A stretch of DNA of 64,000 nucleotides from Candidatus Rokuibacteriota bacterium (GTDB lineage: Bacteria; Methylomirabilota; Methylomirabilia; Rokubacteriales; CSP1-6): the NCBI GenBank assembly GCA_016184125.1, contig JACPDG010000037.1, positions 107,502 through 171,501 of the forward strand. The letters are read 5' to 3'. The notes beneath the pieces are model-generated. The model ran no database searches. It saw only the letters and a list, made by a program, of their open reading frames with translations, and was not told where the DNA came from. Within the stretch, counting starts at the first letter, position 1, and each line of letters starts with the position of its first letter. Positions 796 to 46,159 of this stretch are shown here, piece by piece. The translations under genes and the position numbers were made by a program.

Positions 796-843
796 AGTTC
801 GAGCAACAATCGACCGGCGCGCCGGTCGATTGTTGCTCGAACT
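796..843. repeat. 48-nt perfect palindrome (AGTTCGAGC-N30-GCTCGAACT) between cofE and npdG
   Basis: Verified self-reverse-complementary over all 48 nt. It begins 2 nt after the cofE stop. A second copy with identical 9-nt ends lies at 45365-45412. Confidence 0.9.
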
Positions 844-867
844 GAACCCCAGGAAGGAGGCACCCGC

Positions 868-1512
868 GTGAAGATCGCGATCCTCGGAGGCACCGGCAAG
901 GAGGGATTCGGGTTGGCCGCGCGGTGGGTCGAGCTCGACCACGCCATCGTCATCGGCTCGCGCGACGCCGAGCGCGCGCGCGCGAAGGCGGCGGAGCTCC
1001 GTGCCGCGACCGGGTGCCAGTCCATCACCGGGGCGTCGAACCGTGACGCGGCCGCCGAGGGTGACGTCGTCGTGGTCGCGCTGCCCGCGAACGGCCTCGC
1101 CAGCACGCTTCCCGACGTCCGCGACGGGTGCCGCGGCAAGGTCGTGATCTCGACCGTCGTGCCCCTCACCTTCGGCACGTCGCGCCTCTTCACGCCTCCC
1201 GCCGCCGGCTCGTCCGCGGAGGAGGTGCAGGCGCTCCTGCCCGAGGCGCGCGTCGTCGCGGCGTTCCACCACGTCGCCGCGCACGAGCTCAGCGAGACGG
1301 AGCACGAGATCGACTGCGACCTGCTCTACTGCGGAGGTGACGCGGACGCGAAGCAGGTCGCCGCCACGCTGGGTGCGTCGATGGGCCTGCGCCCGCTCGA
1401 CATCGGACCGCTCACGAACGCCGGGCCGCTCGAAGGCATCACCGCCGTGCTCGCGACGGTGAACCGCCGCTACAAGCTGAAGAACGCGGGGATCAAGATC
1501 ACGGGGGTGTGA
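868..1512 (+). CDS. npdG: NADPH-dependent F420 reductase (Fno/NpdG)
   Basis: GTG start preceded by GGAAGGAGG. The protein aligns end-to-end with F420H2:NADP+ oxidoreductase (ILGGTG..G.ALR, VVGSR, PLDIGPL). Confidence 0.85.
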   Translation: MKIAILGGTGKEGFGLAARWVELDHAIVIGSRDAERARAKAAELRAATGCQSITGASNRDAAAEGDVVVVALPANGLASTLPDVRDGCRGKVVISTVVPLTFGTSRLFTPPAAGSSAEEVQALLPEARVVAAFHHVAAHELSETEHEIDCDLLYCGGDADAKQVAATLGASMGLRPLDIGPLTNAGPLEGITAVLATVNRRYKLKNAGIKITGV

Positions 1513-1520
1513 ACCGATCT

Positions 1521-1643
1521 CATGGGGGGCCTCGAAGGGCCCCCCAAACCCCCCGAACGCTCGGCCACGCCCCGGGGAACCCGGGGCGTGCCTCGATCTC
1601 GCATGCGGCCGGGAGGGCCGACGTGGCGGCCAGTTCCCGTTTT
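1521..1643. repeat. GC-rich hairpin repeat element, copy A (CATGGGGGGCCTCGAAGGGCCCCCC...)
   Basis: Member of a ~110-125 bp family recurring at 13 or more loci in this window. It starts 9 nt after the npdG stop. Confidence 0.8.
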
Positions 1644-1650
1644 CTTCCTA

Positions 1651-2268
1651 TCAGGTGCGGAGCTCGGCGAGGAAGGCGCGGACCGCCTTCGTGTGGCTGC
1701 GCATCTCTACGAAGGACGCGAGACGGGCGAAGTCGAGCTCGGGAAGGAACTCGCTCGCGTCCCGCCGCTCGTACCCGGCGTCGGTCAGCCTGTAGATCTC
1801 GAAACCGCCCCTGCGCCAGAACCAGACCTCGGGAACTCCCAGGCCCTCGTAGATGGCGAGGCGATCGAGACCACGGCGGGTGATGATCACCTCGAACGCA
1901 ATGTCCGGGAATTCCTTCGCTTCCCAATCGTCGCCGAGGACGTAGCACTCATCGGGTTCGACGCCGCGCTCCTTCGCCTCCTTGCGGAAGGTCGTAGAAC
2001 CGAGGCCGTTCAAGGAAATGTCGCGATCGAGCGCATAGGCCTCGACCAACCGCCCGACGATCGACTTGACGTGCTCGTGCTTGCGCGATGGGCTCATGAT
2101 CTCGAGCGTCCCCTCGAGGTACGCCATGCGGGCGCCTGGTTGGTCGTCGCCGAACAGCTCGAGCAGGGCTTCGTACTGCTGCCAGGTGACGCCGGTCAGC
2201 AGCACCCACCGGTCGACGTCATCGGCTGGCGCGGCGGTCGTGTCGCGCTCGACAAGAGCAGGGTCCAT
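1651..2268 (-). CDS. Uma2-family (DUF820) putative restriction endonuclease
   Basis: 205 aa with a conserved Uma2 layout (YLEGTLEIMSP, CYVLGDDWE..PDIAFEVI, EVWFW). A paralog lies at 51341-51925. Confidence 0.7.
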   Translation of the reverse strand: MDPALVERDTTAAPADDVDRWVLLTGVTWQQYEALLELFGDDQPGARMAYLEGTLEIMSPSRKHEHVKSIVGRLVEAYALDRDISLNGLGSTTFRKEAKERGVEPDECYVLGDDWEAKEFPDIAFEVIITRRGLDRLAIYEGLGVPEVWFWRRGGFEIYRLTDAGYERRDASEFLPELDFARLASFVEMRSHTKAVRAFLAELRT

Positions 2269-2362
2269 GCATGTAGGGTATCAGAGCCCCGCGCGGCGGC
2301 GCTCACGCACCCGTGCTGGCCGGCGCCACCGATAGTGCTCGTGGCGGTCGGCGATGAGATAG

Positions 2363-3100
2363 TCAGGCATTAGCCGGCTGACAACCGAACGGCCACGCTT
2401 GACAATCGGCCGTCGACGTCACCAGCGCCCTCAGCACGGCGGCGACGTCGGCGAGATCCGCGAACAGCAGGTCGGAGCCGCAGGTCGCGAGGTCGGTGGC
2501 CGCGTGGTGGCCCGTCGCGACCGCCACCGCCACCGCGCCGCACGCCCGCGCGCAGTCGACATCGAGCGGCGTGTCCCCGATGATCACCACGCGGTCGAAC
2601 GGGACCTCGACGCCGGCAACGCCGCGGGCACGCGCGCATGCGATCGCCGGGAGCCTGCGGCGGTCGGCGTCGTCGGACCCGAACGCGCCGACCCGGAACA
2701 GCGGCCAGAGTCCCGTGTGACGCAGCTTCACGCGCGCGCCGCTCTCGATGTTCCCGGTGAGGAGGCCCACGATCGCGTCGGTGCGCGCCGCGAGCGCGCG
2801 CACCACGTCGGCCACCCCGGGCATGATCTCGACGCGCGCGCCGTCCCCGACGAGCGCCTCCAGCTCGAGCACGTATCGCTCGAAGCACTCGTCGAGGCGG
2901 CCCGCGATCGCGGCGTCGTCGAATCCCGCGTCGCGCAGGATGTCGAACACCGCCCGCGGATCGGTCTTGCCCCGGAAGTCGTAGCCGTCGATGCCCGCGC
3001 GCGTCCCGTAGACGGCCTCGAGGGCGCGCGCCATCGCGGCGCGGCCCGCGCCTCGCGCGCTCACCAGCGTGCCATCGACGTCGAAGAGGAAGAGCCGCAT
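2363..3100 (-). CDS. HAD-family hydrolase (phosphoglycolate phosphatase-like)
   Basis: Begins MRLFLFDVDGTLV (HAD motif I) and contains the IGDT.LDV motif. Start placed at the ATG at 3100, whose complement 'cat' is at 3098-3100. The ORF-track N-terminal extension is Arg-rich junk. Confidence 0.7.
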   Translation of the reverse strand: MRLFLFDVDGTLVSARGAGRAAMARALEAVYGTRAGIDGYDFRGKTDPRAVFDILRDAGFDDAAIAGRLDECFERYVLELEALVGDGARVEIMPGVADVVRALAARTDAIVGLLTGNIESGARVKLRHTGLWPLFRVGAFGSDDADRRRLPAIACARARGVAGVEVPFDRVVIIGDTPLDVDCARACGAVAVAVATGHHAATDLATCGSDLLFADLADVAAVLRALVTSTADCQAWPFGCQPANA

Positions 3101-3123
3101 CCGGGTCGCCACGCGCGTGACGC

Positions 3124-4272
3124 TCACCGCCCCGCCAGCCGCCGCAGCCGCTCGACGGCGGTCGCGACGGCGGCGAGCGCGTGGTCGATCTCCGCCCCGG
3201 TCGTCCATCGCCCGAGCGTGAACACGAGCGAGGCCTCGGCGTCCTCGCTGGGCAGCCCGATCGCGCGCAGCACGTGCGACGGCTCTCCCGTGAGCGTCGC
3301 GCACGCGGACCCCGAGGACGCCGCGATCCCGTGCAGGTCGAGCTCCAGCAGCACCGCCTCGGCCTTCACGCCGCCGATCACGACGCTCGCGTGGTGCGGC
3401 AGTCGCGCGGGCGGCTCCGGACCCGTGAGGCGCACGCCGGGCACCTGCGCCCGCAGCCCCGCGAGGAGCCGATCGCGCAGGCGCTCGATCCGACGCACCT
3501 CCCGGTCACGCTCGACGCAGGCGATGTCGGCGGCGACCCCCATGCCGACGATCCCGGGCAGATTCTGCGTCCCCGACCGGTACCCGTTCTCCTGGCCGCC
3601 GCCGAGCAGCACCGGCGCCAGCTTCACGTCCCGTCCGACCCACAGCACGCCGGTTCCGGGAGGACCGTGCAGGTCGTTGGACGACACGCTGAGGAGGTCG
3701 ATCGCGTCGTCGGTCACGCTCAGAGGAACGCGCCCCACCGCATGCACGCCGTCCACGTGCAGCGGCACGCCGCGGCGGCGAACGAGCGCGCCGATCTCGC
3801 GGACGGGCTGGAGCGTGCCGATCTCGCCGTTCGCGGCGCCGACGGACACGAGCGCGGTGTCGGTCCTGAGCGCGGACGCGACCGCCTCGGGGACGATCCG
3901 TCCGTCACGGCCGACGGGGACGAGCGTCACGTCCCAGCCGCGCTTGATCAGCGCGCGGCAGGCATTGAGGACCGCGATGTGCTCGACGGCCGACGTGACG
4001 ACGTGACGACCCGCCGCCCGCGCGGCGACGCCGAGCACGGCGAGGTTGATCGCCTCGGTCGCTCCCGACGTGAAGATCACGCCGTCGGGCCTGCCACCCA
4101 CCAGCCGCGCGACCCGCGCCCGGGCCTCGTCCAGCGCCGCGCGCGCGCGCCGCCCCGGCTCGTGGAGCGCCGACGGGTTCCCGAGACCGTCCTCGAGCGC
4201 GGCCATCATCGCCGCGACGACGCGTCGGTCGACCGGCGCGAGGCCGGAGAGGTCGAGGTAGGCGCGAGTCAC
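3124..4272 (-). CDS. Cysteine desulfurase (class V aminotransferase, IscS/NifS family)
   Basis: 382 aa with the motifs TSGATEAIN, SSNDLHGPPG, the active-site region SSGSAC and the PLP-lysine region. Confidence 0.85.
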   Translation of the reverse strand: MTRAYLDLSGLAPVDRRVVAAMMAALEDGLGNPSALHEPGRRARAALDEARARVARLVGGRPDGVIFTSGATEAINLAVLGVAARAAGRHVVTSAVEHIAVLNACRALIKRGWDVTLVPVGRDGRIVPEAVASALRTDTALVSVGAANGEIGTLQPVREIGALVRRRGVPLHVDGVHAVGRVPLSVTDDAIDLLSVSSNDLHGPPGTGVLWVGRDVKLAPVLLGGGQENGYRSGTQNLPGIVGMGVAADIACVERDREVRRIERLRDRLLAGLRAQVPGVRLTGPEPPARLPHHASVVIGGVKAEAVLLELDLHGIAASSGSACATLTGEPSHVLRAIGLPSEDAEASLVFTLGRWTTGAEIDHALAAVATAVERLRRLAGR

Positions 4273-4305
4273 GCGCGGAGCCCTGACGTGGCCCCTGACA
4301 CGCTC

Positions 4306-4536
4306 CTACCGTGTCTTCCGGACGAGGAAGCGGAAGACGACCCCACGCCTCTCGATCTCGAGGAGCTCGTTCCCGGACCTGGCGCTCCAACTCCGCATGT
4401 CCGCCTCGGACGCCGGATCGTCGGAGGTCATCGCGAGCACCTGCCCGGGATCGAGGGCGCGGAGCGCCTCGCGGGTCTTGAGGATCGGCATCGGGCAGTA
4501 GAGCCCGAGACAGTCGAGACACTTGTCGGGTATGAC
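4306..4536 (-). CDS. TusA-like sulfurtransferase (SirA/YedF/YeeD family)
   Basis: 77 aa. Has the CPMP signature (LGLYCPMPILKTREAL) and lies immediately downstream of the cysteine desulfurase. Confidence 0.7.
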   Translation of the reverse strand, partial: VIPDKCLDCLGLYCPMPILKTREALRALDPGQVLAMTSDDPASEADMRSWSARSGNELLEIERRGVVFRFLVRKTR

Positions 4537-4593
4537 AGCCATACGTCGAACGGAAATTCTCACATTGACACGCCACGGGGGCAACAGAGAATA

Positions 4594-5574
4594 ATGGCCG
4601 CTATGCGCGAGTCTCCCGTGGTCGCCGCGCGCGCCGGGAAGCGGGTCAGACAGAAGGTGCTCTGGGCGCTCGCGCTCTCGTCGGTGCTGCCGCTTCTCGT
4701 GCTCGCCTACGTCGTCCACGGGTACGTCGTGCCCGCGCTCGACCCGTCGGACCGCGTCCAGTTCGTGGGCCTCCAGGCCCTCGTCTTCTTCACGCTCGTG
4801 GCGATGATCGCGGGCGGCTGGATCATCTGGAGCGTCGGCCGCACCGTGGCGCGCATGGCCGACCTCATGGCCCGCGACCCGAGCATGACGCATCTTTCGA
4901 CGCGGACGGACGAGGTCGGCGCGCTCATGACGAGCTTCTCGAAGATGTTCGAGACGATCGAGCGGCAGGCGAACGAGATCAACAGCTTCGCGATGCGCCT
5001 GGACGCCGCGTACAAGGAGCTGGAGACGACGAACGCGCGCCTGAAGGAGACCTCGTTCAAGGACGAGGTGACGGGCCTCTACAACCGCCGGTTCTTCACG
5101 ATCCGCCTCGAGGAGGAGATCTCGCGCCACCGGCGCTTCAACCACCCGGTGTCCGTCGTCCTGCTCGACCTCGACGGCTTCAAGCAGGTCAACGACGAGC
5201 TCGGCCACGCCATCGGCGACGAGACCCTCCGCGACGTGGCGCAGATCCTCATGAAGCACTCGCGGGGCATCAACGTCGTCTCCCGCTACGGCGGGGACGA
5301 GTTCGCGATCCTGCTCGTGGAGACGTCGAAAGCGGGGGCGAGACTGTATGCCGACCGCATCCGCGAGGTGATCGCCAGGCACGCCTTCACCCACAGCAAG
5401 CGGGTGACGGCGAGCCTCGGCGTCGCGAGCCTGCCCGAGGACGACGTGGCGACCGCCGAGGACCTGTTCAAGCTCGCCGACGAGGCGCTCTACACCGCCA
5501 AGCGCCGGGGCAAGAACCAGGTCGCGGCCTCGGAATCGACGGAGAAGAAGACGTGGAACGCCGCGACCTCCTGA
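4594..5574 (+). CDS. Membrane-anchored diguanylate cyclase (2 TM + GGDEF)
   Basis: Two N-terminal hydrophobic helices followed by a GGDEF domain (RYGGDEF, DGFKQVND). ATG at 4594. Confidence 0.85.
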   Translation: MAAMRESPVVAARAGKRVRQKVLWALALSSVLPLLVLAYVVHGYVVPALDPSDRVQFVGLQALVFFTLVAMIAGGWIIWSVGRTVARMADLMARDPSMTHLSTRTDEVGALMTSFSKMFETIERQANEINSFAMRLDAAYKELETTNARLKETSFKDEVTGLYNRRFFTIRLEEEISRHRRFNHPVSVVLLDLDGFKQVNDELGHAIGDETLRDVAQILMKHSRGINVVSRYGGDEFAILLVETSKAGARLYADRIREVIARHAFTHSKRVTASLGVASLPEDDVATAEDLFKLADEALYTAKRRGKNQVAASESTEKKTWNAATS

Positions 5575-6605
5575 TCGTCGACGACGACTGGCAGGTCCGC
5601 GAGGTCCTGCACGAGATCTTCCTCTCGTCCGGCTACAACTGTCACCTGGCGCAGGACGGCCGCGAAGCGCTCGAGGTGTTTCGCGCGGCCCGGCCGCCGC
5701 TCGTCGTGACGGACCTCAAGATGCCGAACATGGACGGCATCCAGCTCCTGCACGCGATCCTGGCGGAGGAGGGTGACACCGCCGTCGTCATCCTCACCGG
5801 CGCCGCCGACGTCAAGACGGCGATCGACAGCCTGAAGCTCGGGGCCTACGACTTCATCATGAAGCCGGTGAACGTGGACGAGCTGGTGATCGCGGCGGAG
5901 CGGGCGCTCGAGCGGCGGAACCTGCTCATCGAGCGGCGCCAGTACCAGGCGTACCTGGAGCTGCGCGTCGAGGAGGCCACGCGGGACCTCCAGGCCGCGT
6001 ACCAGCAGCTCCAGGACACGTACCGGGCGACCCTCGAGGCGCTCGGCTCGGCGCTCGACACGCGCGACATCGGCACCGAGTCGCACTCGCGACGCGTCCA
6101 CGGGTACTCGCTCGCGACCGCGCGCGAGTACGGCGTACCGGAGGAACAGCTCTCCGACGTCGCGCACGGGGTGCTCCTCCACGACATCGGCAAGATCGGC
6201 ATCCCGGACGCCATCCTCCTCAAGCCCGGTCCGCTGACGCCGGAGGAATGGACGGTCATGCGCCGCCACCCCGAGATCGGCAAGCGCCTGATCGAGCGCA
6301 TCCCGTTCCTGCGCGGCGCGGTCCCGGTCGTCTACCATCATCACGAGCGCTGGGACGGCAGCGGCTATCCGCTCGGGCTCAAGGGTGAGGAGATCCCGCT
6401 CGGCGCGCGCATCTTCTCGGTGGTGGATGCGTTCGACGCGATGACGTTCGACCGCCCGTACTCCAAGGCCATCCCGATCGACGCGGCGAAGGGGGAGATC
6501 CGGCGCTGCTCGGGCTCGCACTTCGATCCGCTCGTCGCCGAGGCCTTCTTCCGCGTCCCGGAGCCGCTCCTCGCCGAGATCCGCCGCAAGAGCATCGAGC
6601 CCTGA
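5553..6605 (+). CDS. Response-regulator receiver + HD-GYP c-di-GMP phosphodiesterase
   Basis: REC domain (LLIVDDD..VTDLKMP) followed by an HD-GYP domain (HDIGKIGIP, HHERWDGSGYP). It overlaps the cyclase gene by 22 nt. Confidence 0.85.
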   Translation: MERRDLLIVDDDWQVREVLHEIFLSSGYNCHLAQDGREALEVFRAARPPLVVTDLKMPNMDGIQLLHAILAEEGDTAVVILTGAADVKTAIDSLKLGAYDFIMKPVNVDELVIAAERALERRNLLIERRQYQAYLELRVEEATRDLQAAYQQLQDTYRATLEALGSALDTRDIGTESHSRRVHGYSLATAREYGVPEEQLSDVAHGVLLHDIGKIGIPDAILLKPGPLTPEEWTVMRRHPEIGKRLIERIPFLRGAVPVVYHHHERWDGSGYPLGLKGEEIPLGARIFSVVDAFDAMTFDRPYSKAIPIDAAKGEIRRCSGSHFDPLVAEAFFRVPEPLLAEIRRKSIEP

Positions 6606-6659
6606 CGGGCGCTGCGTCACGTGCGCTAGAGCGTGACGCGCGGAATCCTCGCGGAGCGG

Positions 6660-6745
6660 CAAGTTCCTGGCCGGTGACTCTCTTTACCCCCCACGCTCGG
6701 AACCGGCCCGGGACACCCGGGCCGGTCCTCGACAGGCCGCCGGGT
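6660..6745. repeat. Partial (right-half) copy of the hairpin repeat family; convergent-gene hairpin
   Basis: ACGCTCGGAACCGGCCCGGGACACCCGGGCCGGTCCTCGA matches the right arm of the family. It contains the stem CCGGCCCGGG/CCCGGGCCGG. Confidence 0.5.
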
Positions 6746-9200: not shown

Positions 9201-9359
9201 TCTGCCTGATGCTAGCACCGCGGTCGTGTCGCTCTGCTATCATGGGAAATGTTTTCCACACCCTCGGCTCCCCCGCTTGGCCGAGCGCGAACCCGAGGAG
9301 CGCCGGGGGGTGTGGGGGACCCGTCGCGGGTCCCACACTCGATCGGTCCAGGAGGACCT

Positions 9360-10514
9360 ATGCGGCGGGTCGCGGTCATCGGGGTGGGCGTCACGAAGTT
9401 CGGTCGCCACGACCGGTCATCGGGCGAGCTGTTCGCCGAGGCCGCCGTCGAAGCGCTGGCCGACGCGGAGCTCGAGCCGAGCGCGATCCAGGCGCTCTAC
9501 TACGGGAACGTCGTCGGCGGAGAGACCGAGAAGCAGCTCCACTGCGGGCCGCAGGCCGCCTCCATCCTCGGCATCACGGGCGTGCCCACGACGCGCTTCG
9601 AGACGGCGTGCGCCAGCTCGCACGCCGCGTTCCGCCACGCCGTGATGGAGGTCGGCGCGGGGATCAGCGACATCGTGATGGTCGGCGGCGGCGAGCGCGT
9701 CCTGAACGTGCCGACCGAGGACTCCACCGAGTACTTCGCCTACGCCTCCGACGCGATCTGGGAGCAGCCGCTCGGGCTGACGTTCCCGGGCGTCTTCGCG
9801 CTCGTCGCCCGCGCGCACATGCACAAGCACGGGACGACCGAGGAGCAGATGGCGGCCGTCGCGGTGAAGAATCACCGGCACGGCACGCTGAATCCCAAGG
9901 CGCAGTTCCGCAAGGAGATCACGCTCGAGCAGGTCATGACCTCCGCGAAGGTCGCGGACCCGCTCAAGCTCTACGACTGCTGCCCGTTCTCCGACGGCGG
10001 CGCCGCGGTCATCCTCGCGTCCGAGGACGTGGCGCGGTCCCGCAAGCGCGCCGTGTGGGTGCTCGGGTCGTCGGCGGCGTCCGACTGGATGCTGATCGGC
10101 GACAAGCCTGATCTGTCCCGGGTCCTGGCGACCGAGCGCGCGGCGGCGGCGGCGTACCGGCAGGCGGGTCTCGGACCGCAGGACGTCGACGTCGTCGAGC
10201 TCCACGACTGCTTCACGATCGCCGAGATCGTCGCGACCGAGGGCCTCGGACTCTTCGAGCCCGGCATGGGTGGCGTCGCCGCCGAGAAGGGCTGGACGAG
10301 CCTCGGCGGCAAGGTCCCGGTGAACCCGTCCGGAGGTCTGAAGGCGAAGGGACACCCGATCGGCGCGACCGGAGCCGCGCAGGTCGCGGAGATCGTCACG
10401 CAGCTTCGCGGAGAGGCGGGTCCGCGACAGGTCGGTGGGGCGAAGACGGGTCTCGTCCACACGCTCGGCGGAAACACGGCAACCGTAGTCGTGAGCGTGC
10501 TCGGCCGTGAGTGA
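9360..10514 (+). CDS. Thiolase-like protein (SCP-x/nsLTP-type thiolase domain)
   Basis: ATG at 9360 after GGAGGA. Condensing-enzyme fold motifs (CASS active-site Cys, GGGE, HTLGGN at C-terminus). Confidence 0.8.
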   Translation: MRRVAVIGVGVTKFGRHDRSSGELFAEAAVEALADAELEPSAIQALYYGNVVGGETEKQLHCGPQAASILGITGVPTTRFETACASSHAAFRHAVMEVGAGISDIVMVGGGERVLNVPTEDSTEYFAYASDAIWEQPLGLTFPGVFALVARAHMHKHGTTEEQMAAVAVKNHRHGTLNPKAQFRKEITLEQVMTSAKVADPLKLYDCCPFSDGGAAVILASEDVARSRKRAVWVLGSSAASDWMLIGDKPDLSRVLATERAAAAAYRQAGLGPQDVDVVELHDCFTIAEIVATEGLGLFEPGMGGVAAEKGWTSLGGKVPVNPSGGLKAKGHPIGATGAAQVAEIVTQLRGEAGPRQVGGAKTGLVHTLGGNTATVVVSVLGRE

Positions 10515-10890: not shown

Positions 10891-11000
10891 TCGCTCGGAG
10901 GGGGCTCCGCCTCCCTTCCGAACCTCCCCCGTCGATTGCGGGCTCTCTGATCTCCGCCCCCTCGGTTGCGACGCCGCAGGCCGCCGGATAGGATGGCGGC

Positions 11001-13261: not shown

Positions 13262-13263
13262 CC

Positions 13264-13385: not shown

Positions 13386-13432
13386 CTGACGACGGTATAC
13401 GCCTTGCCCCACCGCACGTTGAGGAGGCCCTG

Positions 13433-19507: not shown

Positions 19508-19582
19508 TTGGAGCGGGCGACCGGAGTCGAACCGGCGACATCAAGCTTGGGAAGCTTGCGTTCTGCCTCTGAACTACGCCCG
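19508..19582 (-). tRNA. tRNA-Gly (anticodon CCC)
   Basis: The reverse complement folds into a cloverleaf: acceptor GCGGGCG/CGCCCGC, D-arm GTTCAGAGGCAGAAC, anticodon loop TTCCCAA, T-arm GCCGGTTCGACTCCGGT, with an encoded CCA. It is near-identical in layout to E. coli tRNA-Gly(CCC). Confidence 0.9.
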
Positions 19583-19617
19583 CTCGGCGCCCTCCATTCT
19601 ACACGAACCGGACCATG

Positions 19618-24042: not shown

Positions 24043-24335
24043 CACTGATCACATGGGGGGCCCCGACATGGCCCCCCATGCCCCCCAACGCTCGGATGCG
24101 CCCCGGGAAACCCGGGGCGCACCTCGAGCTCCCGTCCGCACGAGGCCCCCGACATGGCCCCCCATGCCCCCAACGCTCGGATGCGCCCCGGGAAACCTGG
24201 GGGGGAAACCCGGGGCGCACCTCGATCTCCCGTTCGCACGGGGGCCCTACATGCCTCCCGCGGCTCCCCCGCGCTCGGCCGCGCCCGGGGGAGTGCGCAG
24301 ACGCACCCGCGAACCCCGGGGCGCGCCTCGGCCCT
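24043..24335. repeat. Tandem array (~2.5 copies) of the hairpin repeat family
   Basis: CATGGGGGGCCCCGACATGGCCCCCCATGCCCCCCAACGCTCGG... repeated. The 3' end of the ligase ORF, including its stop, lies inside this array. Confidence 0.8.
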
Positions 24336-27831: not shown

Positions 27832-28189
27832 GCGAACGAATCGCGTGATCGAGGAGCGCCACGGCTTTGCCGGGTGCGTCCGCGCACCGCCCGCGGCGCT
27901 CCGAGCGCGGGGCCGGGGGAGTCCGAGGGGAGCGCGAGCGAGCCCCCTTCATACGAGTGTCGGGGGCTTCGCTAGTCCCCCCATGAAGTGGAGCCCGTGA
28001 CCGAATCCGCTGCCCGAGCCGCGCCCCGGGTCCCCCGGGGCGCGTGCGAGCGTGGGGGGTTTGGGGGGCTTCGCTGGTCCCCCCATGAAGTGGAGCCCGT
28101 GACCGAATCCGACGCCCGAGCCGCGCCCCGGGTCCCCCGGGGCGCGTGCGAGCGTGGGGGGTTTGGGGGGCTTCGCTGGTCCCCCCATG
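27832..28189. repeat. Tandem array of the hairpin repeat family, inverse orientation
   Basis: Two near-identical ~120-bp units (..CCCCCCATGAAGTGGAGCCCGTGACCGAATCC..) plus a partial unit. They are the reverse complement of the CATGGGGGG units elsewhere. Confidence 0.8.
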
Positions 28190-31765: not shown

Positions 31766-31777
31766 TACAGCACACCC

Positions 31778-34887: not shown

Positions 34888-36324
<1,437 letters not shown>

Positions 36325-36356
36325 CAGGGCGGCCGCATACCCGGAGGATCACGTTC

Positions 36357-37064: not shown

Positions 37065-37087
37065 CCTGATCCGGGAGAGGGTGTCCC

Positions 37088-38755: not shown

Positions 38756-38757
38756 GC

Positions 38758-39723
38758 ATGTACCTCAAGTTCTACGGCCTGCGCGAGGCGCCGTTCGCCC
38801 CCACGCCGGATCCGAAGTTCCTCTTCCAGTCGACCCGTCACCGCGAGGCGCTCGCGCAGCTCGTCTACGGCGTGCGCGAGCGCAAGGGCTTCATCGTGCT
38901 CACCGGCGAGATCGGCACGGGCAAGACGACGCTGCTCCGCACGCTCCTCGAGCGGCTGGACGGGCAGACCCCCGTCGCATACGTCCACAACTCGGCCCTC
39001 GAGATCGAGGGACTGCTCGAGTACATCCTCCACGACTTCGGCGTGAAGTCCACCGCCCGGAGCCAGGCCCAGCGGCTCGTGGAGCTCAACGAGTTCCTCA
39101 TCGAGCAGCACCGCCAGGGGCGGTCGCCCGTGCTCGTGATCGACGAGGCGCAGAACCTCGCCATTCCCACCCTCGAGGCCGTGCGCCTGCTCTCGAACTT
39201 CGAGACCACGCACGAGAAGCTGATGCAGATCCTGCTCGTCGGGCAGCCGGAGCTCCGCGACAAGCTGAACGCGCCGGAGCTCCGGCAGCTCAAGCAGCGC
39301 GTCGGGCTGCGCTGCCACATCGCCCCGCTGTCGCCCGAGGAGGCGCGCCTCTACATCCGGCACCGCCTGCGCGTGGCCGGCGCCGCCGACGCGGGTCTCT
39401 TCACGGACGGCGCGATCCAGACGATCGCGGAGTACTCGCAGGGCACGCCGCGCGTGATCAACATCGTGTGCGACCACTGCCTGCTCACCGGCTACGCGGA
39501 TTCGACCAGGCGCATCGACGCCGACATCGCCGGCGAGGCCATCGAGTACCTCGAGGACGGCGAGCGGCGCGAGTGGAAGCGCAGCCGCCACGTGCGGCTC
39601 GTGCCCAGCCGCACGGCCGTGTGGGCGGCGCGCAGCGGCGTCGCCGTCCTCGTGGTCCTCGTCGCCCTCATGCTCGTCTTCGCCGCCAACGCCCTCGGCT
39701 GGCTCGGCGGCGTCATTCGATAG
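38758..39723 (+). CDS. ExeA-like AAA+ ATPase of exosortase/EPS loci
   Basis: MYLKFYGLREAPF...Walker A GEIGTGKTTL. Domain order matches the 'PEP-CTERM locus ATPase' family. Confidence 0.85.
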   Translation: MYLKFYGLREAPFAPTPDPKFLFQSTRHREALAQLVYGVRERKGFIVLTGEIGTGKTTLLRTLLERLDGQTPVAYVHNSALEIEGLLEYILHDFGVKSTARSQAQRLVELNEFLIEQHRQGRSPVLVIDEAQNLAIPTLEAVRLLSNFETTHEKLMQILLVGQPELRDKLNAPELRQLKQRVGLRCHIAPLSPEEARLYIRHRLRVAGAADAGLFTDGAIQTIAEYSQGTPRVINIVCDHCLLTGYADSTRRIDADIAGEAIEYLEDGERREWKRSRHVRLVPSRTAVWAARSGVAVLVVLVALMLVFAANALGWLGGVIR

Positions 39724-39732
39724 AGGAGCCCC

Positions 39733-40845
39733 ATGAGCAAGTTCTTCCAGGCCCTCGAGAACGCCGACCGGGAGCGCACGGCCAGGCACGGCCGGACCGC
39801 GGACTCGTCCGAGCCGACCGCGGCGCTCACGGCCGTCGTCGACGCACCGGCCGCGACCGTCGCCGTGGACGCGGCGCTGGCCGGGGCCGAGACGGATGTC
39901 GGGCCGCCGAATGGCGGCAGCGTCCCGTCGGTGGAGCCCACTCCCCCCGGTGCCGTCGATCGCCCGGCGGCCGCGGCGAGCGCGCCCAGGGCCACCGCCC
40001 CGACGCGCCGGGCGACCACCCCGACCACCACGTATGGCGCGCCGCTGTCCCGCCGCCGGAGCGGGCGCGGGGCGCATGCGGACGCCCTCGCCGACACGTT
40101 CGCGCCCGTGGACGTCGAGGAAGCGGGCGAGCTCGACGACCACCTGGTGAGCCTCCTGGCGCCGACGAGCTTCGCCGCCGAGCAGTACCGCACGGTGCGG
40201 CTCGCGATCGAGACGCACCAGCGCGAGCGCGGCCTGCACGTCGTCGCCGTGTCGAGCCCCGGTCGCCGTGAGGGCAAGACGGTGACGGCCATCAACGTCG
40301 CAGGCGCCCTCGCGCAGGCGCCGGACGCCCGCGTCGCGCTCGTCGACGCGGACCTGCGCCACCCGCGGCTCGCGGCGTACCTGGGCAGGCCCGCCACGCG
40401 CGGACTCTCGGCGTACCTGCTCGACTCGTCCCTCGGCGTGGACGACGTCGTGCAGAAGACCGGCGCCGCGGCCTTCTCGGCCGTCGTCGCCGGGCCGCCG
40501 TCCTCGATGCCGTACGAGCTGCTCAAGTCGCCGCGCCTCGTGGCGCTGTTCCAGGCGCTCCGCGCGCGCTTCGACTACGTCGTCGTCGACACGCCGCCGG
40601 TGCTGCTCTTCCCCGACGTCGGCATCCTCCGCGACGCCGTCGACGGGTTCGTGATCGTCGTCCGCGCCAACCACACGCCGCGTGAGGGCGTCCTCGACGG
40701 TCTCGACACGGTCGGTCGTCACCGGGTCGTGGGTCTGGTCTTCAACGACGACGGGCGACACGTCGCGGCGACGTCCGACGCCGAGCCCGACCGCGGGTGG
40801 CGTCGGTACTTCTCGCTGAGGCTCGGAGGCAGTCTCGTTGACTAA
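39733..40845 (+). CDS. Chain-length-determinant tyrosine-kinase-like P-loop protein (EpsG/BY-kinase catalytic-domain type)
   Basis: Walker A SSPGRREGKTVTAINVA, Walker A' VDADLRHP, and a C-terminal Tyr/Arg-rich tail (GWRRYFSL). Confidence 0.75.
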   Translation: MSKFFQALENADRERTARHGRTADSSEPTAALTAVVDAPAATVAVDAALAGAETDVGPPNGGSVPSVEPTPPGAVDRPAAAASAPRATAPTRRATTPTTTYGAPLSRRRSGRGAHADALADTFAPVDVEEAGELDDHLVSLLAPTSFAAEQYRTVRLAIETHQRERGLHVVAVSSPGRREGKTVTAINVAGALAQAPDARVALVDADLRHPRLAAYLGRPATRGLSAYLLDSSLGVDDVVQKTGAAAFSAVVAGPPSSMPYELLKSPRLVALFQALRARFDYVVVDTPPVLLFPDVGILRDAVDGFVIVVRANHTPREGVLDGLDTVGRHRVVGLVFNDDGRHVAATSDAEPDRGWRRYFSLRLGGSLVD

Positions 40846-41701
40846 CGTCCTCACCGTCGACGTCGAGGAGTACTACCACGGCGTGGAGTTCGGGCAGGCG
40901 CTGGGCATCGAGGAGCTCGCCCGCCTGCCGAGCCGCGTGGTGCCCGAGACGAGCCGGCTGCTCGACGTCCTCGACGCCGGCGGCGCGCGCGGGACCTTCT
41001 TCACGCTGGGCGTCGTCGCCGACCGTTACCCGCGCCTCGCGCGCGAGATCGTCGCGCGCGGCCACGAGCTCGCGTCGCACGGCTGGGACCACACCGTGGT
41101 CACGCGCCAGGACCGCGAGCGATTCCGGCTCGACGTCCGGCGCGCCAAGCACGCGCTCGAGCAGGCGACGGGACGCGCCGTGCGAGGCTACCGGACGCCC
41201 AACTTCTGCCTGACTCGCTCGACGCCGTGGTTCTTCGAGGCGCTCGCCGAGGAGGGCTACGCGTACGACTCGAGCGTCCACCCGATCACGCACGACCGGT
41301 ACGGGCTCCCGGACGCGCCGCGCTTCCCGTACTCGGTGCCGGCCGGCCGCGGCGCCACGCTCTGGGAGGTTCCGGTCGGCACCGCGCGCCTCGGCCGGAC
41401 AAACCTGCCGTTCGGTGGCGGATTCTTCCGCCTGTTCCCCCAGGCCCTCGTGCGGCACGCGATGGCGAGCGTGAACCGCCGCGAGGGCCGGCCCGTCGTG
41501 TTCTACCTCCACCCGTGGGAGCTGGACCGCGACCAGCCGCGCCCGCCGATGACGCTGCTCCACCGCTTCCGTCACTACGTCGGCATCCGCGCTGCCGAGT
41601 CGAAGCTCGCCGCGCTCCTCGCGGCGTTCCGGTTCACCTCCATCGAGCGGGCGTTCGCGGACGTCACACGGCCGGCCCTCCTCGAAGCGAACGCCGGGTG
41701 A
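40838..41701 (+). CDS. Polysaccharide deacetylase (PEP-CTERM-locus subfamily)
   Basis: Probable TTG start after GGAGG. MTNVLTVDVEEYYHG (NodB motif 1), FFTLG, HGWDH. Confidence 0.85.
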   Translation: MTNVLTVDVEEYYHGVEFGQALGIEELARLPSRVVPETSRLLDVLDAGGARGTFFTLGVVADRYPRLAREIVARGHELASHGWDHTVVTRQDRERFRLDVRRAKHALEQATGRAVRGYRTPNFCLTRSTPWFFEALAEEGYAYDSSVHPITHDRYGLPDAPRFPYSVPAGRGATLWEVPVGTARLGRTNLPFGGGFFRLFPQALVRHAMASVNRREGRPVVFYLHPWELDRDQPRPPMTLLHRFRHYVGIRAAESKLAALLAAFRFTSIERAFADVTRPALLEANAG

Positions 41702-41705
41702 GAGA

Positions 41706-41808
41706 GGAGCCCGTGAACGAATCCGGTGCCCGAGCCGCGTCCCGGGTCCCCCGGGACGCGTGCGAGCGACCGGGGGGGCTTGGGGGGGCTTCGATAGTCC
41801 CCCCCATG
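41706..41808. repeat. Hairpin repeat family, copy F (inverse orientation); supplies the udk start codon
   Basis: ..CTTGGGGGGGCTTCGATAGTCCCCCCCATG. The terminal CCCCCCATG is the ATG of the uridine kinase gene. Confidence 0.75.
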
Positions 41809-42456
41809 TTCGTCATCGGCATCGCAGGGGGCAGCGGCAGCGGCAAGACGACGCTGGCGGGCGCGGTTGCGAGCGCGCTCGGCCCGGATCGCGTCGCGCT
41901 GCTCGCGCACGACGCGTACTACCGGGACCGGAGCACCCTCGACCCCGAGGCGCGCGCGCTCGTCGACCACGACGTGCCGGACGCGCTCGACCACGAGCAA
42001 TTCCTCGCCGACCTCGCGCGCCTGAAAACGGGTCAGCCCGTCCGTCCCCCGCGGTACTGCTTCGCGACGCACCGCCGCATCGGGACCGAGGACCCGATCG
42101 AGCCGCGCGAGATCCTGATCGTCGAGGGCCTCCTGCTCTTCCACGACCCGGCGGGGCGCGAGGCGCTCGATCTGCGGATCTTCGTCGACGCGCCCGCCGC
42201 GCTGCGCCGGCAGCGGCGCATCGCGCGGGACACCGTCGAGCGCGGCCGCACGCGCGAGTCGGTCGTGCGGCAGTTCTCGGCGACCGTGTACCCGGCGCAC
42301 GTCGCGTACGTGGGGCCGACCAAGGCGTACGCGCACCTGGTCCTGCTGAACGCCGGCGCGCTCGCCCCGCTCGCCGAGGTCGCGGCGACCGTCATTCGCA
42401 CGCACCTCGCCCGGCGCATGGAGGACTCGCTCGGTGCCCGCAGACAGCTTGCGTAG
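41806..42456 (+). CDS. udk: Uridine kinase-family protein
   Basis: P-loop IGIAGGSGSGKTT, with D..YY.D and the EG.LLF motifs aligning with Udk over the full length. Confidence 0.8.
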   Translation: MFVIGIAGGSGSGKTTLAGAVASALGPDRVALLAHDAYYRDRSTLDPEARALVDHDVPDALDHEQFLADLARLKTGQPVRPPRYCFATHRRIGTEDPIEPREILIVEGLLLFHDPAGREALDLRIFVDAPAALRRQRRIARDTVERGRTRESVVRQFSATVYPAHVAYVGPTKAYAHLVLLNAGALAPLAEVAATVIRTHLARRMEDSLGARRQLA

Positions 42457-43696
42457 AGCCCCGGCCCGCGGGGGCGACGAGGTCATCGACTTCCCGCTCT
42501 GCCGGGACCCGCGCCACGAGGCCGCGATCCGGCGCGTGCTCGTGCGCTGCCTCGACGTCGTGCAGGAGCGGCTCGGCTCGGACAAGCTCGTAGCGCTCGT
42601 GCTGACCGGCAGCTTCGCGCGCGGCGAGGGGAGCGTCATGAGCGGCGAGCGCGTGCCGCGCGTGCTCGGCGACATCGAGTTCCTCGCCGTGTTGCCGGGC
42701 GAGGTCGACTTCCACCGGCTCCGCGGCTCCTTCCCCGCGTGGAGCGAAGAGGCGAGCCGGCTCGCGAGCGACGAGGTGCGTGTCGACATCGAGTTCGGCC
42801 CCGTCGAGATCGGCTATCTCGCGCGGCGCGCACGGCCCTCGATCTTCGTCTACGACCTGATCCGCCACGGCAAGGTGATCGCGGGCCGTGCGGACATCCT
42901 GGGCGAGGTGCCGGCGTTCACGCCGGCCGACATCCCGCCGCACGACGCGGTCCACCTCGTCTTCAACCGGCTCATCGAGCAGCTCGAGGCGTACGACCGG
43001 GCCGCGGAGCTCGACGACATCGCACTCTGGGACGTCGCGTACCAGCGGACCAAGCTCGTCCTGGATCTCGCCGGCTCCGCGCTCGCGTTCCGGGGTCGTC
43101 ACGAGCCGTCCTATGCCAGCCGCCCCCGCGCGTTCGCCCGGCTGCTCGAGGAGGAGCCCGCGCTCGCGCTCGCGCTCCCGCCGGGCTTCCTCGGCGAGCT
43201 CGACCGGGCGGCACGCCTGAAGCTCGTGCCGGGCGACGGTCGGGACGTTCTGCCCCCGCACCTCCCACCCGCAGCGCAGCGCGCATGGGTCCGCGAGCGC
43301 ATCGTCGCCGGCGTGCCAGCCGTCGCCTCCGTGCTCCGCTGGGAGCTCGAAGCCTTGCTCGGAATGCACGGCGACCTGCCGCCCCTGCTCGCTCGCTGGA
43401 TGCGCCGGCACCACTGGACGCGCCGGGCCTGGGACTGGACGAAGGTCGCGCTGCACCCGGTGCCGGCGCCCGTGCCGCTCGCGCGCATCCGCGCCGCCCG
43501 GCGCGCCGTCACGTCGACGCCGCGCGCGCTCCTCTACACGGCCGGCGCGCTCGCGTACCTGAACCTGCATCGCCCCACCGCCCGCCCGTCGGCGATCGCA
43601 CGGCTGCTGTTCGTGCGGCGCGCGGCACGCCGAGACCCGGCCGCGCAGCGGCAGACGATCACGTTGCTCTGGCGGTGGTGCGTGCGCAACACCTGA
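42434..43696 (+). CDS. Hypothetical protein with a Pol-beta-like nucleotidyltransferase motif
   Basis: GSFARGEG..S...D.EF region near the N-terminus, the rest unassigned. GTG start overlapping the udk stop. Its position inside the EPS operon is notable. Confidence 0.45.
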   Translation: MPADSLRRAPARGGDEVIDFPLCRDPRHEAAIRRVLVRCLDVVQERLGSDKLVALVLTGSFARGEGSVMSGERVPRVLGDIEFLAVLPGEVDFHRLRGSFPAWSEEASRLASDEVRVDIEFGPVEIGYLARRARPSIFVYDLIRHGKVIAGRADILGEVPAFTPADIPPHDAVHLVFNRLIEQLEAYDRAAELDDIALWDVAYQRTKLVLDLAGSALAFRGRHEPSYASRPRAFARLLEEEPALALALPPGFLGELDRAARLKLVPGDGRDVLPPHLPPAAQRAWVRERIVAGVPAVASVLRWELEALLGMHGDLPPLLARWMRRHHWTRRAWDWTKVALHPVPAPVPLARIRAARRAVTSTPRALLYTAGALAYLNLHRPTARPSAIARLLFVRRAARRDPAAQRQTITLLWRWCVRNT

Positions 43697-43706
43697 GGAC
43701 TCCCGA

Positions 43707-44990
43707 ATGCCCTTGGAGCCGCTGTCGATCTACGTGCTCGTGGACGCGCTCGGCTGGGAGCTCATCAAGGACCGGCCGTTCCTCGACGACATCCTCACCG
43801 AGAAGCGCTCGCTCACGACCATCCTCGGCTACAGCTCTGGCGCGATCCCGTCCATTCTCTGCGGGAGACCGCCGAGCGAGCACGGCCACTGGAACCTCTT
43901 CTACTACTCGCCCGCCACGTCGCCGTTCCGCTGGACCCGGCCGCTCTCACGCCTCCCCGCGCCACTGCGCGAGAACCGCGTGGCGCGCCGGCTGCTCAAG
44001 GGCGTCGCGCGACGGGTGTCGGGGTACACCGGCTACTTCTCGCTCCATGCGTACCCGGTGCCGCACCTGCCGTACTTCGACATGACCGAGAAGCGGGACA
44101 TCTACCAGCCGGGCGGCCTCGATGCGCCCTCGATCTTCGATGTCTTCGTCCGGCACGGGATCCGGTGGGAGACCTACAGCTACCACCGCCACACGGACGC
44201 CCAGATCCTCGACCTGGCGCCGCGCCGCGCCCGGCAGACGGACGCGCGCGTGCTCTTCCTGTACCTGTCCGGCCTCGATCACTACCTGCACTGGAACGTG
44301 CACGATCGCGAGGGCGTCCACGCGCAGCTCGACTGGTACGCGCACGGCCTCCGTGAGATCTGGCGCGCGGCGCAGCAGGCGCGGGACGACGTCCGCATGG
44401 TGCTCTTCTCCGACCACGGCATGACGCCGATCCGATGGACGTACGATCTCGCCCGCGACGTCCGCGCGCTCGGCCTCCGGCTCCCCGGCGACTATCTGTC
44501 GGCCTACGATTCGACGATGGCCCGCTTCTGGGTGTGGAACGACCGTGCGCGCGCGACGCTCGAGGCGCTGCTCGCCGACCATCCGTGCGGGCAGCTCCTC
44601 TCGCCGGCCGAGCTCGACCGGCTCGGCGTCTGGTTCGAGGACGGCCGGTACTACCACCTGCTTTTCCTCGCCCGGCCGGGCCTGCTCATCTCTCCGAGCG
44701 ACATGGGGCACGTCCGCTTCGCCGGCATGCACGGCTACCACCCGAGCGAGCCGACGGCCGACGCCGTGCTGCTGTCGACCATCGAGGTCCCCAAGCCGGT
44801 CGACCACATCACCGCCATCCAGCGCGTCTTGCTGGGCGACCTCGGCGTTCCTGGAAGTGGGGGCCCCGACATGGCCCCCACACCCCCCGCGCTCGGAAGC
44901 GCCCCGGGTTCCCCGGGGCGCTCCTCGACCACGCGATCGAGCCACCAGCCGCCGGCGTTGGAGGTCGCGACACCGGTGAAGCACACGTGA
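43707..44990 (+). CDS. Alkaline-phosphatase-superfamily protein (type I phosphodiesterase/nucleotide pyrophosphatase family)
   Basis: IYVLVDALGWE, the FSDHGMTP metal-site motif, and a C-terminal HGYHPSEP. Confidence 0.7.
   Translation: MPLEPLSIYVLVDALGWELIKDRPFLDDILTEKRSLTTILGYSSGAIPSILCGRPPSEHGHWNLFYYSPATSPFRWTRPLSRLPAPLRENRVARRLLKGVARRVSGYTGYFSLHAYPVPHLPYFDMTEKRDIYQPGGLDAPSIFDVFVRHGIRWETYSYHRHTDAQILDLAPRRARQTDARVLFLYLSGLDHYLHWNVHDREGVHAQLDWYAHGLREIWRAAQQARDDVRMVLFSDHGMTPIRWTYDLARDVRALGLRLPGDYLSAYDSTMARFWVWNDRARATLEALLADHPCGQLLSPAELDRLGVWFEDGRYYHLLFLARPGLLISPSDMGHVRFAGMHGYHPSEPTADAVLLSTIEVPKPVDHITAIQRVLLGDLGVPGSGGPDMAPTPPALGSAPGSPGRSSTTRSSHQPPALEVATPVKHT
44858..44945. repeat. Hairpin repeat family, copy G, inside the 3' end of the alkaline-phosphatase-like ORF
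   Basis: GGGGGCCCCGACATGGCCCCCACACCCCCCGCGCTCGG... The last ~45 aa of the ORF are repeat-encoded. Confidence 0.7.
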
Positions 44991-46159
44991 GCCCGATCCG
45001 CCTGCTCTTCGTCCTCACGTCCGCGGTGCGTGGCGGCGTGGAAGAGGTCGTCCTGGCGCTCGCGACCCGCCTCGATCGCTCGGAATTCCGGGTCGCGATC
45101 GCCGCGCCCGCGACGCTGCTCGACGCGTTCGCCGCGGACCTCGCGCGGCATCCCGTCGACACGCTCCCCGTCGACGCCGAGAGCTGGCTCAGACGCGCCG
45201 AGGTGGACCGCTTCGCGCGCTTCCTTCGCGCCTGGCGTCCGGAGATCGTGAACCCCCACTTGTTCCGGTCGACGCTCGTGTCCGTCCCGCTCGCCCGCTG
45301 GCACGGCGTCCCCGCGATCGTCGAGACGTACCACGGCCGGGAAGGCTGGCGACAGGACCGGCTCAGTTCGAGCCACGATCGAGCGCCCGGGCGCTCGATC
45401 GTGGCTCGAACTCTCGGCGCGTCGTTCGCACTCGACCGCGCGATGAGCCACCTCATCGATCGCGTCATCGCCGTATCGGAGGCGGCTCGTGACTTTCTCG
45501 TCCACGGCAAGGGGTACGCGGCCCGCAAGGTGGTCGTCGTCCCGAACGGCCGCGATCTCACGACGTTCACGCCCGGCGTGCACCGCGAGCAGATCAGGAA
45601 GGAGCTCGGGCTCGACGGCTCGGTCCCCATCGCCGGCGTCGTCGGCCGCCTCGAGATGCAGAAGGGCCACGCCTACCTCCTCGAGGCGTGGCCCGCGGTG
45701 CTCGCCGAGCTGCCCGACGCTCGGCTCGTGCTCGCCGGCGATGGCAGCCTGCGCGACGCGCTCGTGCAGAAGGCAGGTGCGCTCGGCATCGCCGACCGCG
45801 TGATCTTCCTCGGCTTCCGGCCGGACGTGCCCCGCGTCCTCGACGCGATCGACGTCCTGGCGCTGCCGTCCCTCTACGAAGGCATGCCGCTGACGGCGAT
45901 CGAGGCGGCCGCGATGGCGCGTCCCGTCGTCGCCACCGCGGTGGACGGCACGGTGGAGGTCGTGCGCGACGGGGTGACCGGCTCGCTCGTTCCGCCCGGC
46001 GATCCACCCGCACTCGCACGGGCGCTGACCGCGATCCTCGGTGATCCCCCCCGAGCCGCGCGCATGGGGGCGTCCGGACGCGCCTGGGCGTGCGAGCGCT
46101 TCGACCTGGACCGGCAGGTGGAAGCGACCGCGCGGGTCTACCGGAGCGCTCTGGCATGA
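44987..46159 (+). CDS. Glycosyltransferase family 1 (GT4-type), EPS locus
   Basis: GTG overlapping the upstream stop. GT1 C-terminal motifs (GRLE.QKG, LPSLYEG.P....EA.A) are present. It carries a 16-aa in-frame insert encoded by a 48-nt palindrome. Confidence 0.85.
   Translation: MSPIRLLFVLTSAVRGGVEEVVLALATRLDRSEFRVAIAAPATLLDAFAADLARHPVDTLPVDAESWLRRAEVDRFARFLRAWRPEIVNPHLFRSTLVSVPLARWHGVPAIVETYHGREGWRQDRLSSSHDRAPGRSIVARTLGASFALDRAMSHLIDRVIAVSEAARDFLVHGKGYAARKVVVVPNGRDLTTFTPGVHREQIRKELGLDGSVPIAGVVGRLEMQKGHAYLLEAWPAVLAELPDARLVLAGDGSLRDALVQKAGALGIADRVIFLGFRPDVPRVLDAIDVLALPSLYEGMPLTAIEAAAMARPVVATAVDGTVEVVRDGVTGSLVPPGDPPALARALTAILGDPPRAARMGASGRAWACERFDLDRQVEATARVYRSALA
45365..45412. repeat. 48-nt perfect palindrome (AGTTCGAGC-N30-GCTCGAACT) inserted in-frame in the GT1 gene
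   Basis: Verified self-reverse-complementary. It has the same length and 9-nt ends as the element at 796-843 and encodes SSSHDRAPGRSIVART within the ORF. Confidence 0.9.

Follow-up and report, generated by a model that had tools for sequence, protein, structure and literature searches.

Two perfect 48-nt palindromes in a Rokubacteria genome, possible members of a family of very small MITE-like insertion elements

[quoted passage not shown] Repetitive extragenic palindromes (REPs) typically exceed 100 copies per genome and lie outside genes (PMC2817692), a GTAG or CGTC tag is the hallmark of their two superfamilies (PMC3733652), and REP-like hairpins between the genes of an operon stabilize the upstream mRNA (PMC3184786). 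Palindromes can also be perfected with no need for selection, as template switching during replication turns quasi-palindromes into perfect ones (PMC7202029). Here we examine two homologous, perfect 48-nt palindromes in a 64,000-nt stretch of DNA (the window) from Candidatus Rokuibacteriota bacterium (contig JACPDG010000037.1, positions 107,502 to 171,501), one of which occupies the spacer between cofE and npdG and the other of which lies in frame inside a gene for a family 4 glycosyltransferase (GT4). Comparison of sequences and gene coordinates places both copies within a lineage-specific extra 51 bp that is missing from the nearest relatives, and we give about an even chance to the explanation that the palindromes belong to a small, lineage-restricted, non-coding, MITE-like family of insertion elements.

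Palindromes and the sites they occupy

The two copies lie 44.5 kb apart in the window, which has a G+C content of 72%. Their positions, host or neighboring genes and flanks are as follows.

796-843: copy 1, a perfect 48-nt palindrome composed of the half-site AGTTCGAGCAACAATCGACCGGCG and then its reverse complement CGCCGGTCGATTGTTGCTCGAACT, in the cofE/npdG spacer
42-794, + strand: cofE, F420 gamma-glutamyl ligase (Pfam F420_ligase, E = 2.3e-72), upstream of copy 1
868-1512, + strand: npdG, F420-dependent NADP oxidoreductase of 214 residues (Pfam F420_oxidored), downstream of copy 1
793-795: GAG, left flank of copy 1
844-846: GAA, to the right of copy 1; possible target-site duplication, one base mismatched
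45365-45412: copy 2, a perfect 48-nt palindrome composed of the half-site AGTTCGAGCCACGATCGAGCGCCC and then its reverse complement GGGCGCTCGATCGTGGCTCGAACT, in frame inside the GT4 gene
44987-46159, + strand: intact GT4 gene hosting copy 2 (Pfam Glyco_transf_4 and Glycos_transf_1), in an exosortase/exopolysaccharide locus
45362-45364: CTC, left 3-bp direct repeat of copy 2
45413-45415: CTC, right 3-bp direct repeat of copy 2

Each palindrome is complementary to itself over its full length (100%), its two 24-nt arms abutting with 0 nt in between, and the two copies share their terminal 9 nt (AGTTCGAGC on the left, GCTCGAACT on the right). An earlier interpretation made from the DNA by itself (the sequence-only reading) had described two exact palindromes with identical 9-nt ends, and direct inspection and a repeat finder both bear this out, just as the gene labels it used for cofE, npdG, Uma2 and the glycosyltransferase agree with Pfam. 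The palindromes exceed chance: the runner-up in a scan of the window for perfect hairpins has arms of only 14 nt, and in 100 simulated windows (first-order Markov, with the dinucleotide transition frequencies of the window) the longest arm averaged 11.1 nt with a maximum of 14. The two copies are also homologous, as 19 of the 24 positions in their half-sites agree (21% differ). Beyond the shared ends, a second block common to both half-sites, ATCGA, occupies positions 14-18, and the differences fall at positions 10, 13, 19, 22 and 24, the innermost part of the half-site being variable between copies. Neither copy contains a stop codon in any of its three frames, and both strands read alike. 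As single-stranded DNA, each is predicted to form a stem of 22 bp closed by a loop of 4 nt (positions 23-26), with a dG of -27.9 kcal/mol (z = -11.2) for copy 1 and -30.4 kcal/mol (z = -10.8) for copy 2.

The GT4 protein of the window (identical to MBI2216258.1) is 390 aa long compared to 373 aa in its closest orthologues, and its closest relatives fall into identity classes of 86-90%, 77-80% and 73-76% (BLASTP and alignment). In an alignment of 118 homologues including the window protein, in addition to which the 12 closest orthologues were aligned, the 17 columns that hold SSHDRAPGRSIVARTLG contain residues in 0 of the 117 others. Copy 2 begins at the first codon position of the GT4 frame, and the palindrome encodes SSSHDRAPGRSIVART. 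Where the orthologous DNA of locus L043 reads CGG CTG CGC GGG TCC, with a single CTG codon at the place of the insert, the window reads CGG CTC, then the 48-nt palindrome, then CTC GGC GCG TCG; the extra DNA is therefore the palindrome plus a second CTC leucine codon (48 + 3 = 51 nt, 17 codons). The sequence-only reading was right that the insert preserves the frame, and the segment is, as it had predicted, lineage-specific, but it put the size at 48 nt and 16 codons and missed the flanking repeat.

An AlphaFold2 model of GT4 (mean predicted local distance difference test, pLDDT, of 91; predicted template modeling score, pTM, of 0.86) has a single segment with pLDDT <50, residues 123-143, which contains almost the whole insert (127-143) and sits between a strand at 110-115 and a helix at 143-154, and the alignment shows that the motifs of the catalytic domain have been kept intact. 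GT4 thus looks functional, with what is modeled as an added, disordered 17-residue surface loop, a location in which the insert would be tolerated. The stop-to-stop frame that holds GT4 (44357-46156) has a third-position G+C of 0.77 compared to ~0.90-0.95 in most neighbors, which may stem in part from a non-coding 5' extension of that frame.

Copy 1 is located 1 nt past the stop codon of cofE and 24 nt short of the start codon of npdG, within a 73-nt spacer (795-867) that follows a CofE identical to MBI2216218.1. In a relative whose CofE is 93% identical (JGI sample 3300056388, which is also the source of the closest GT4), cofE ends at 9840 and npdG starts at 9863, leaving a spacer of 22 nt; the two spacers differ by exactly 51 nt, and npdG has 214 residues in both. 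A more distant relative (L046, 82% identity) has an unrelated cofE-npdG spacer of 103 nt, which is uninformative. The left flank of copy 1, GAG, is on the other strand CTC, the triplet that flanks copy 2, and an alternative flanking repeat is provided by CTGA at 791-794 and 842-845, 51 nt apart. Contigs in Logan from the runs SRR12113418 and SRR12113422 carry an identical cofE, reach 20 nt into palindrome 1 and then end; as these represent two runs and a different assembler, the cofE-palindrome junction, here for copy 1, is not the artefact of one assembler. The stop at exactly 20 nt (L020 2445-2464; L021 1916-1935) differs from the ~30 nt predicted by a k = 31 graph argument, and tip clipping, poor read-through of the hairpin and population heterogeneity in the palindrome core are candidate causes.

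Mirrored changes and the upkeep of symmetry

All five differences between the half-sites are mirrored in the opposite arm, as the sequence-only reading had recognized when it judged the copies to be related palindromes with mirrored cores. Its further step, that compensatory change implies selection on the hairpin, does not follow, as template switching would suffice (PMC7202029) and as one of the mirrored changes falls outside the stem. Copy 1 has GC at positions 24/25 where copy 2 has CG, and this change lies inside the predicted 4-nt loop, beyond the reach of selection on the stem, which suggests homogenization of the arms at the level of DNA; the argument concerns a single position, at which such a match would have an estimated ~7% chance under independent change. 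As the mirrored change shows, the arms do not evolve independently, and we infer that a process acting on the DNA itself, and not selection on the function of an RNA or DNA hairpin, keeps the symmetry perfect. Candidates for such a process would include intrastrand template switching, hairpin-templated repair and a hairpin transposition intermediate, and either a hairpin or a snap-back intermediate would restore perfect symmetry at every move. The combination of varying sequence with perfect stems is also seen in a family of 25-nt hairpins in the window and in palindromes of Isoptericola jiangsuensis (both described below), and hairpin repeats of high-GC genomes would seem to share it generally.

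A proposed insertion element and its alternatives

In the insertion model that we favor, each element would consist merely of two abutting 24-bp terminal inverted repeats, and the 51 bp missing from relatives would represent the 48-bp element and a 3-bp target duplication. Duplications of 3 bp are the footprint of a staggered cut followed by fill-in, as made by DDE-type transposases, and as no transposase was found among the ~46 window frames compared with Pfam, the enzyme, a putative DDE-type transposase, would act in trans from another part of the genome. It is plausible that the conserved ends serve as its recognition site. Since 48 + 3 = 51 and all frames are open, a gene that receives an insertion gains 17 codons and keeps its frame. 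Both insertions are younger than the split from the nearest sampled relative, the one with the 93% identical CofE, and since two copies that are 21% different in their half-sites have nevertheless both arrived recently, they probably derive from different source copies, which predicts that more copies exist elsewhere.

Several observations weigh against a MITE-like family. Only two copies are known. The window holds no other copy or degraded half-site, the best other match having 6 mismatches in 24. The pattern AGTTCGAGC-N30-GCTCGAACT, scanned with exact ends across 185,579 species-representative GTDB genomes (one per species), JGI metagenome contigs and IMG/VR, gave 19 matches in the genomes, 21 in the metagenome contigs and 1 in IMG/VR, none of which has a related core; most are non-palindromic chance matches and a minority are unrelated hairpin families. 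Matches by blastn of both copies to 72,556 plasmids were at chance level only (E >= 3), and no insertion sequence with matching ends was among them. A comparison of ~46 reading frames, covering most of the window, with Pfam revealed no transposase, integrase, REP-associated or Y1/HUH domain. The empty site of copy 1 is deduced from the gene coordinates of the relative alone, and the repeat that flanks this copy is imperfect, GAG and GAA agreeing at two of three positions. Finally, MITEs usually have internal sequence and imperfect inverted repeats, and a perfect, loop-free palindrome is atypical of them.

Other searches were equally negative within their scope: a stricter family pattern found nothing in IMG/VR, the loci of relatives (L043-L046) contain no related palindrome or degraded copy, and six-frame translations of both copies returned nothing at E <= 10 in a peptide search in which 16 residues are powerless against 5.8 billion proteins. 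The wider family that the sequence-only reading had proposed to look for across genomes did not come to light in collections among which the source metagenome-assembled genome (MAG) is not included.

The genes scanned in the window are those of housekeeping, signaling and exopolysaccharide/exosortase functions, together with an ATP-dependent DNA ligase, and the statement in the sequence-only reading that no integrase is nearby agrees with the Pfam comparison. It was equally correct that the ends do not fit integron attC sites. The rules for attC call for R'' (RYYYAAC) on the 5' side, R' (GTTRRRY) on the 3' side, extrahelical bases, and IntI or an array of cassettes next to the site; the palindromes carry GTT on the 5' side and AAC on the 3' side, the reverse of this order, GTTCGAG misfits GTTRRRY, and the stem is without bulges. 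The only nucleases found in the window are encoded by two genes.

1654-2268, - strand: Uma2-family PD-(D/E)XK nuclease (Pfam)
51344-51937, - strand: second Uma2-family PD-(D/E)XK nuclease (Pfam)

A part for Uma2 nucleases at the palindromes had been suggested and gains no support, as a literature search listed no paper that by title or abstract ties this family to palindromic repeats, and no particular association is apparent in this DNA. The first of the two genes does mark a rearranged spot ~800 nt from palindrome 1, the closest relative having CheW, MCP and dCache genes between npdG and a HAD hydrolase where the window has the Uma2 gene, with no evidence of a link to the palindromes.

Among the alternatives, it is possible but unlikely that the palindromes are REP/REPIN-type elements, whose single-stranded hairpins would be moved by an IS200/IS605-like enzyme, a REP-associated tyrosine transposase (RAYT), with its gene elsewhere. 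A single-stranded hairpin intermediate would explain why the arms remain complementary, the palindromes are short GC-rich hairpin repeats with covarying stems in a genome rich in other REP-like hairpins whose perfect stems covary, and copy 1, like many REPs, lies outside genes, flanked by two that run in the same direction. With AGTT and AACT as their ends, however, the palindromes lack both the GTAG and the CGTC tag, the 64 kb contain 2 copies of which one is inside the GT4 gene, and the loops and imperfect stems of REPs are missing. Direct repeats at the flanks and a constant increment of 3 nt are also not expected of IS200/IS605-type insertion, and no Y1 transposase domain was seen among the scanned frames.

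Distinctly unlikely, in our view, is an origin without transposition, in which end-joining at two staggered breaks took up a snap-back DNA fragment of common origin, or a polymerase switched templates. Such repair would be predicted to leave palindromic filler DNA with flanking microhomology, and the flanking repeats are indeed short and differ in register (CTC at one copy; GAG/GAA or CTGA..CTGA at the other), as microhomology might. The ATP-dependent ligase of the window and the fact that only two copies are known would also suit this explanation, and template switching can make a perfect hairpin in one event (bioRxiv 10.1101/2023.04.19.537475; PMC7202029). A local template switch, in contrast, would copy neighboring sequence, and duplication of this kind is ruled out by the absence of both arms from the orthologous sites. 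Moreover, for two independent events to yield exactly the same 48 + 3 nt, the same 9-nt ends and half-sites of 79% identity, a defined common source would be required, which would in effect be a repeat family.

More speculative still is the idea of a mobile DNA of an undescribed kind, whose moving form would be a closed hairpin or a single strand snapped back on itself and whose every new copy would be regenerated as a perfect palindrome of fixed length. Were this true, the mirrored differences would be a by-product of the mechanism and the element a ready-made inserter of a 17-codon peptide in frame. One variant would regard each palindrome as the fold-back of one end of an unseen insertion sequence, left to left and right to right, which would account for the ~79% identity between copies, similar to that between the two ends of one insertion sequence.

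We consider it very unlikely that the palindromes are primarily selected cis-acting sites. Such a site might form a cruciform or bind a protein dimer, or it might act in the mRNA as a hairpin that shields the cofE transcript or tunes the expression of npdG and GT4. The predicted hairpin is very stable, the ends are conserved, and copy 1 separates two genes that share an F420 operon. These features have to be set against the absence of the palindromes from all relatives examined, which is not the behavior of a conserved regulatory element, the position of one copy inside a coding region, and the expectation that a protein-binding site would conserve its sequence rather than covary. Nor are signals of regulation evident around copy 1: the hairpin is directly followed by GAACCCCAGG, a scan of 500-1200 found no T-run terminator or promoter-like site after it, and the npdG ribosome-binding site, AGGAAGGAGG, lies outside the hairpin and is unpaired in the predicted RNA fold of 770-890. 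The lack of a T-run rules out an intrinsic terminator, and a known RNA family is ruled out by Rfam, in which at the gathering score neither copy matches and the sole match in the window is a tRNA (19512-19583). Any cis function would be secondary to insertion and hence compatible with a MITE-like element, and an effect on the stability of cofE mRNA is possible.

An assembly or sequencing artefact, or chance, has a probability close to negligible, for although the source is a MAG, chimeric fold-back reads can yield perfect palindromes and the Logan contigs break inside palindrome 1, the flanks continue collinear and in frame, the junction of palindrome 1 recurs in two runs with another assembler, the same ends and the 51-nt size are found at two sites, and simulated arms are <=14 nt.

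If the MITE-like family should turn out to be larger, its members, 48 bp long, made of inverted repeats only and always adding 17 codons, would rank with the smallest known insertion elements. They would also provide a natural case in which structural selection can be separated from mechanical homogenization of the arms as the cause of hairpin covariation, a distinction that matters wherever covariation serves as evidence that an RNA or DNA structure is functional. Known at present from two copies and without an enzyme, they are a modest addition to the catalogue of small bacterial repeats.

Neighboring repeats and comparison with known systems

The window contains a far commoner family of 25-nt hairpins, with an 11-bp perfect stem NNNNNCCCGGG, a 3-nt loop and CCCGGGNNNNN, in which the inner CCCGGG is constant and the outer 5 bp vary among copies and are always complementary.

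1566-1590, 6702-6726, 24097-24121, 28020-28044, 28122-28146: 25-nt hairpins
41736-41760, 44898-44922, 61828-61852, 61925-61949, 62972-62996: 25-nt hairpins, continued

A composite unit of 96-102 nt, which joins a hairpin of the CATGGGGGGCC...GGCCCCCCATG type with one 25-nt CCCGGG hairpin, forms tandem arrays of 1.9-2.4 copies at 24105-24290, 27962-28189 and 61687-61914 and resembles mosaics of REP type, similar to bacterial interspersed mosaic elements. Perfect 21-nt repeats lie inside a large Wzy_C (O-antigen ligase-like) gene at 53342-53565, and a 47-nt repeat of 2.1 copies near the end of the window at 63076-63172.

The genes on either side of GT4 have also changed in length. Downstream, in the GT2 gene (46090-47553; especially 46270-46460), the linker from the N-terminal membrane helix to the catalytic domain has ~95 residues compared to ~15 in L043, an in-frame excess of ~80 residues whose DNA holds G/C-run hairpins and a 21-nt tandem repeat of 4.7 copies that encodes ADAPVRC repeats. 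Upstream, the phosphodiesterase-family gene (43707-44990) encodes 427 aa compared to 394 aa in the L043 orthologue, and its divergent C-terminal tail (3' end at ~44880-44990) holds the 25-nt hairpin at 44898-44922. It had been supposed in the sequence-only reading that in-frame palindromic inserts are unusual outside Rickettsia, which overstates their rarity in view of these two neighboring genes and of the known BOX, ERIC and Anabaena MITE insertions (PMC10969869, PMC3184786). Genes of an exopolysaccharide locus in an uncultured phylum (Rokubacteria/Methylomirabilota) undergo remodeling by repeat insertions.

Two sets of hairpins from other sources came up among the matches to the end pattern. 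On the Isoptericola jiangsuensis DSM 21863 chromosome, palindromes with a central gap of 0-6 nt, one of them perfect at 72 nt, have arms that consist of two tandem ~18-nt units with GGCAGTTCGAGC-like motifs. An unrelated hairpin family, in low-GC metagenome contigs and an Allomuricauda MAG, is conserved in its outer stem, GTCAGTTCGAGC...GCTCGAACTGAC, and its inner stem resembles GTCGAGAAC; its member in L033 is a 66-nt perfect palindrome. This family and the Rokubacteria element share a second TCGA[G/A/C] motif 9-11 nt past the first, which may be coincidence.

L015 1234-1305, 4334-4399 and 5081-5146: Isoptericola palindromes
L009 6292-6365: Isoptericola palindrome, inside a long open reading frame
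L014 1660-1707, L022 12793-12840, L029 158-205, L033 6455-6502 and L038 1545-1592: unrelated GTCAGTTCGAGC hairpin family

Of the known systems, the Isoptericola palindromes are alike in that they occur in a high-GC genome, are 66-74 nt long, in some cases gapless and with 0-1 mismatch, and vary between copies yet stay palindromic. Their sequence is unlike that of the Rokubacteria palindromes beyond the 9-mer used in the search, and they are longer, have an internal tandem sub-repeat and are intergenic in 3 of 4 cases by rough gene calls. Quasi-palindrome correction, as known in E. coli and yeast, equalizes arms at the DNA level and would explain the mirrored change in the loop (PMC7202029), but it is a mutational mechanism and not an element, and accounts for the upkeep of symmetry rather than for the origin or spread of a 48-bp unit. 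REPs and REPINs are also short, GC-rich hairpins with covarying stems, often between the genes of an operon; the palindromes differ from them in having no GTAG/CGTC tag, no loop and no stem imperfection, in the intragenic position of one copy, in the flanking duplication and in their apparently low copy number.

The RPEs resemble copy 2 in that they insert in frame into unrelated genes and the protein tolerates them (PMC10969869), as the 17 codons in what is modeled as a disordered loop of GT4 would be. They are, in contrast, ~105-150 bp long (PMC3184786), present in tens of copies, restricted to Rickettsia and unrelated in sequence, whereas the Rokubacteria MAG has elements of 48 bp, one copy of which is intragenic, and these do not belong to the RPE family.

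The closest known kind is the bacterial MITE, and the palindromes are most likely very small MITE-like elements. Like MITEs, they are non-coding and small (48 bp), have terminal inverted repeats (24 + 24 nt, 100% complementary) and no transposase gene, present a filled site with a short direct repeat in comparison with an empty site (exact for copy 2, CTC; 2/3 for copy 1), and can form a long stem-loop and become joined in frame to the reading frames of the host (PMC3184786, PMC10969869). They depart from MITEs in being only 48 bp long, with no internal sequence, complementary right to the centre and known in two copies. What is distinctive in the 48-nt elements is their extreme brevity, together with a symmetry that is complete and loop-free.

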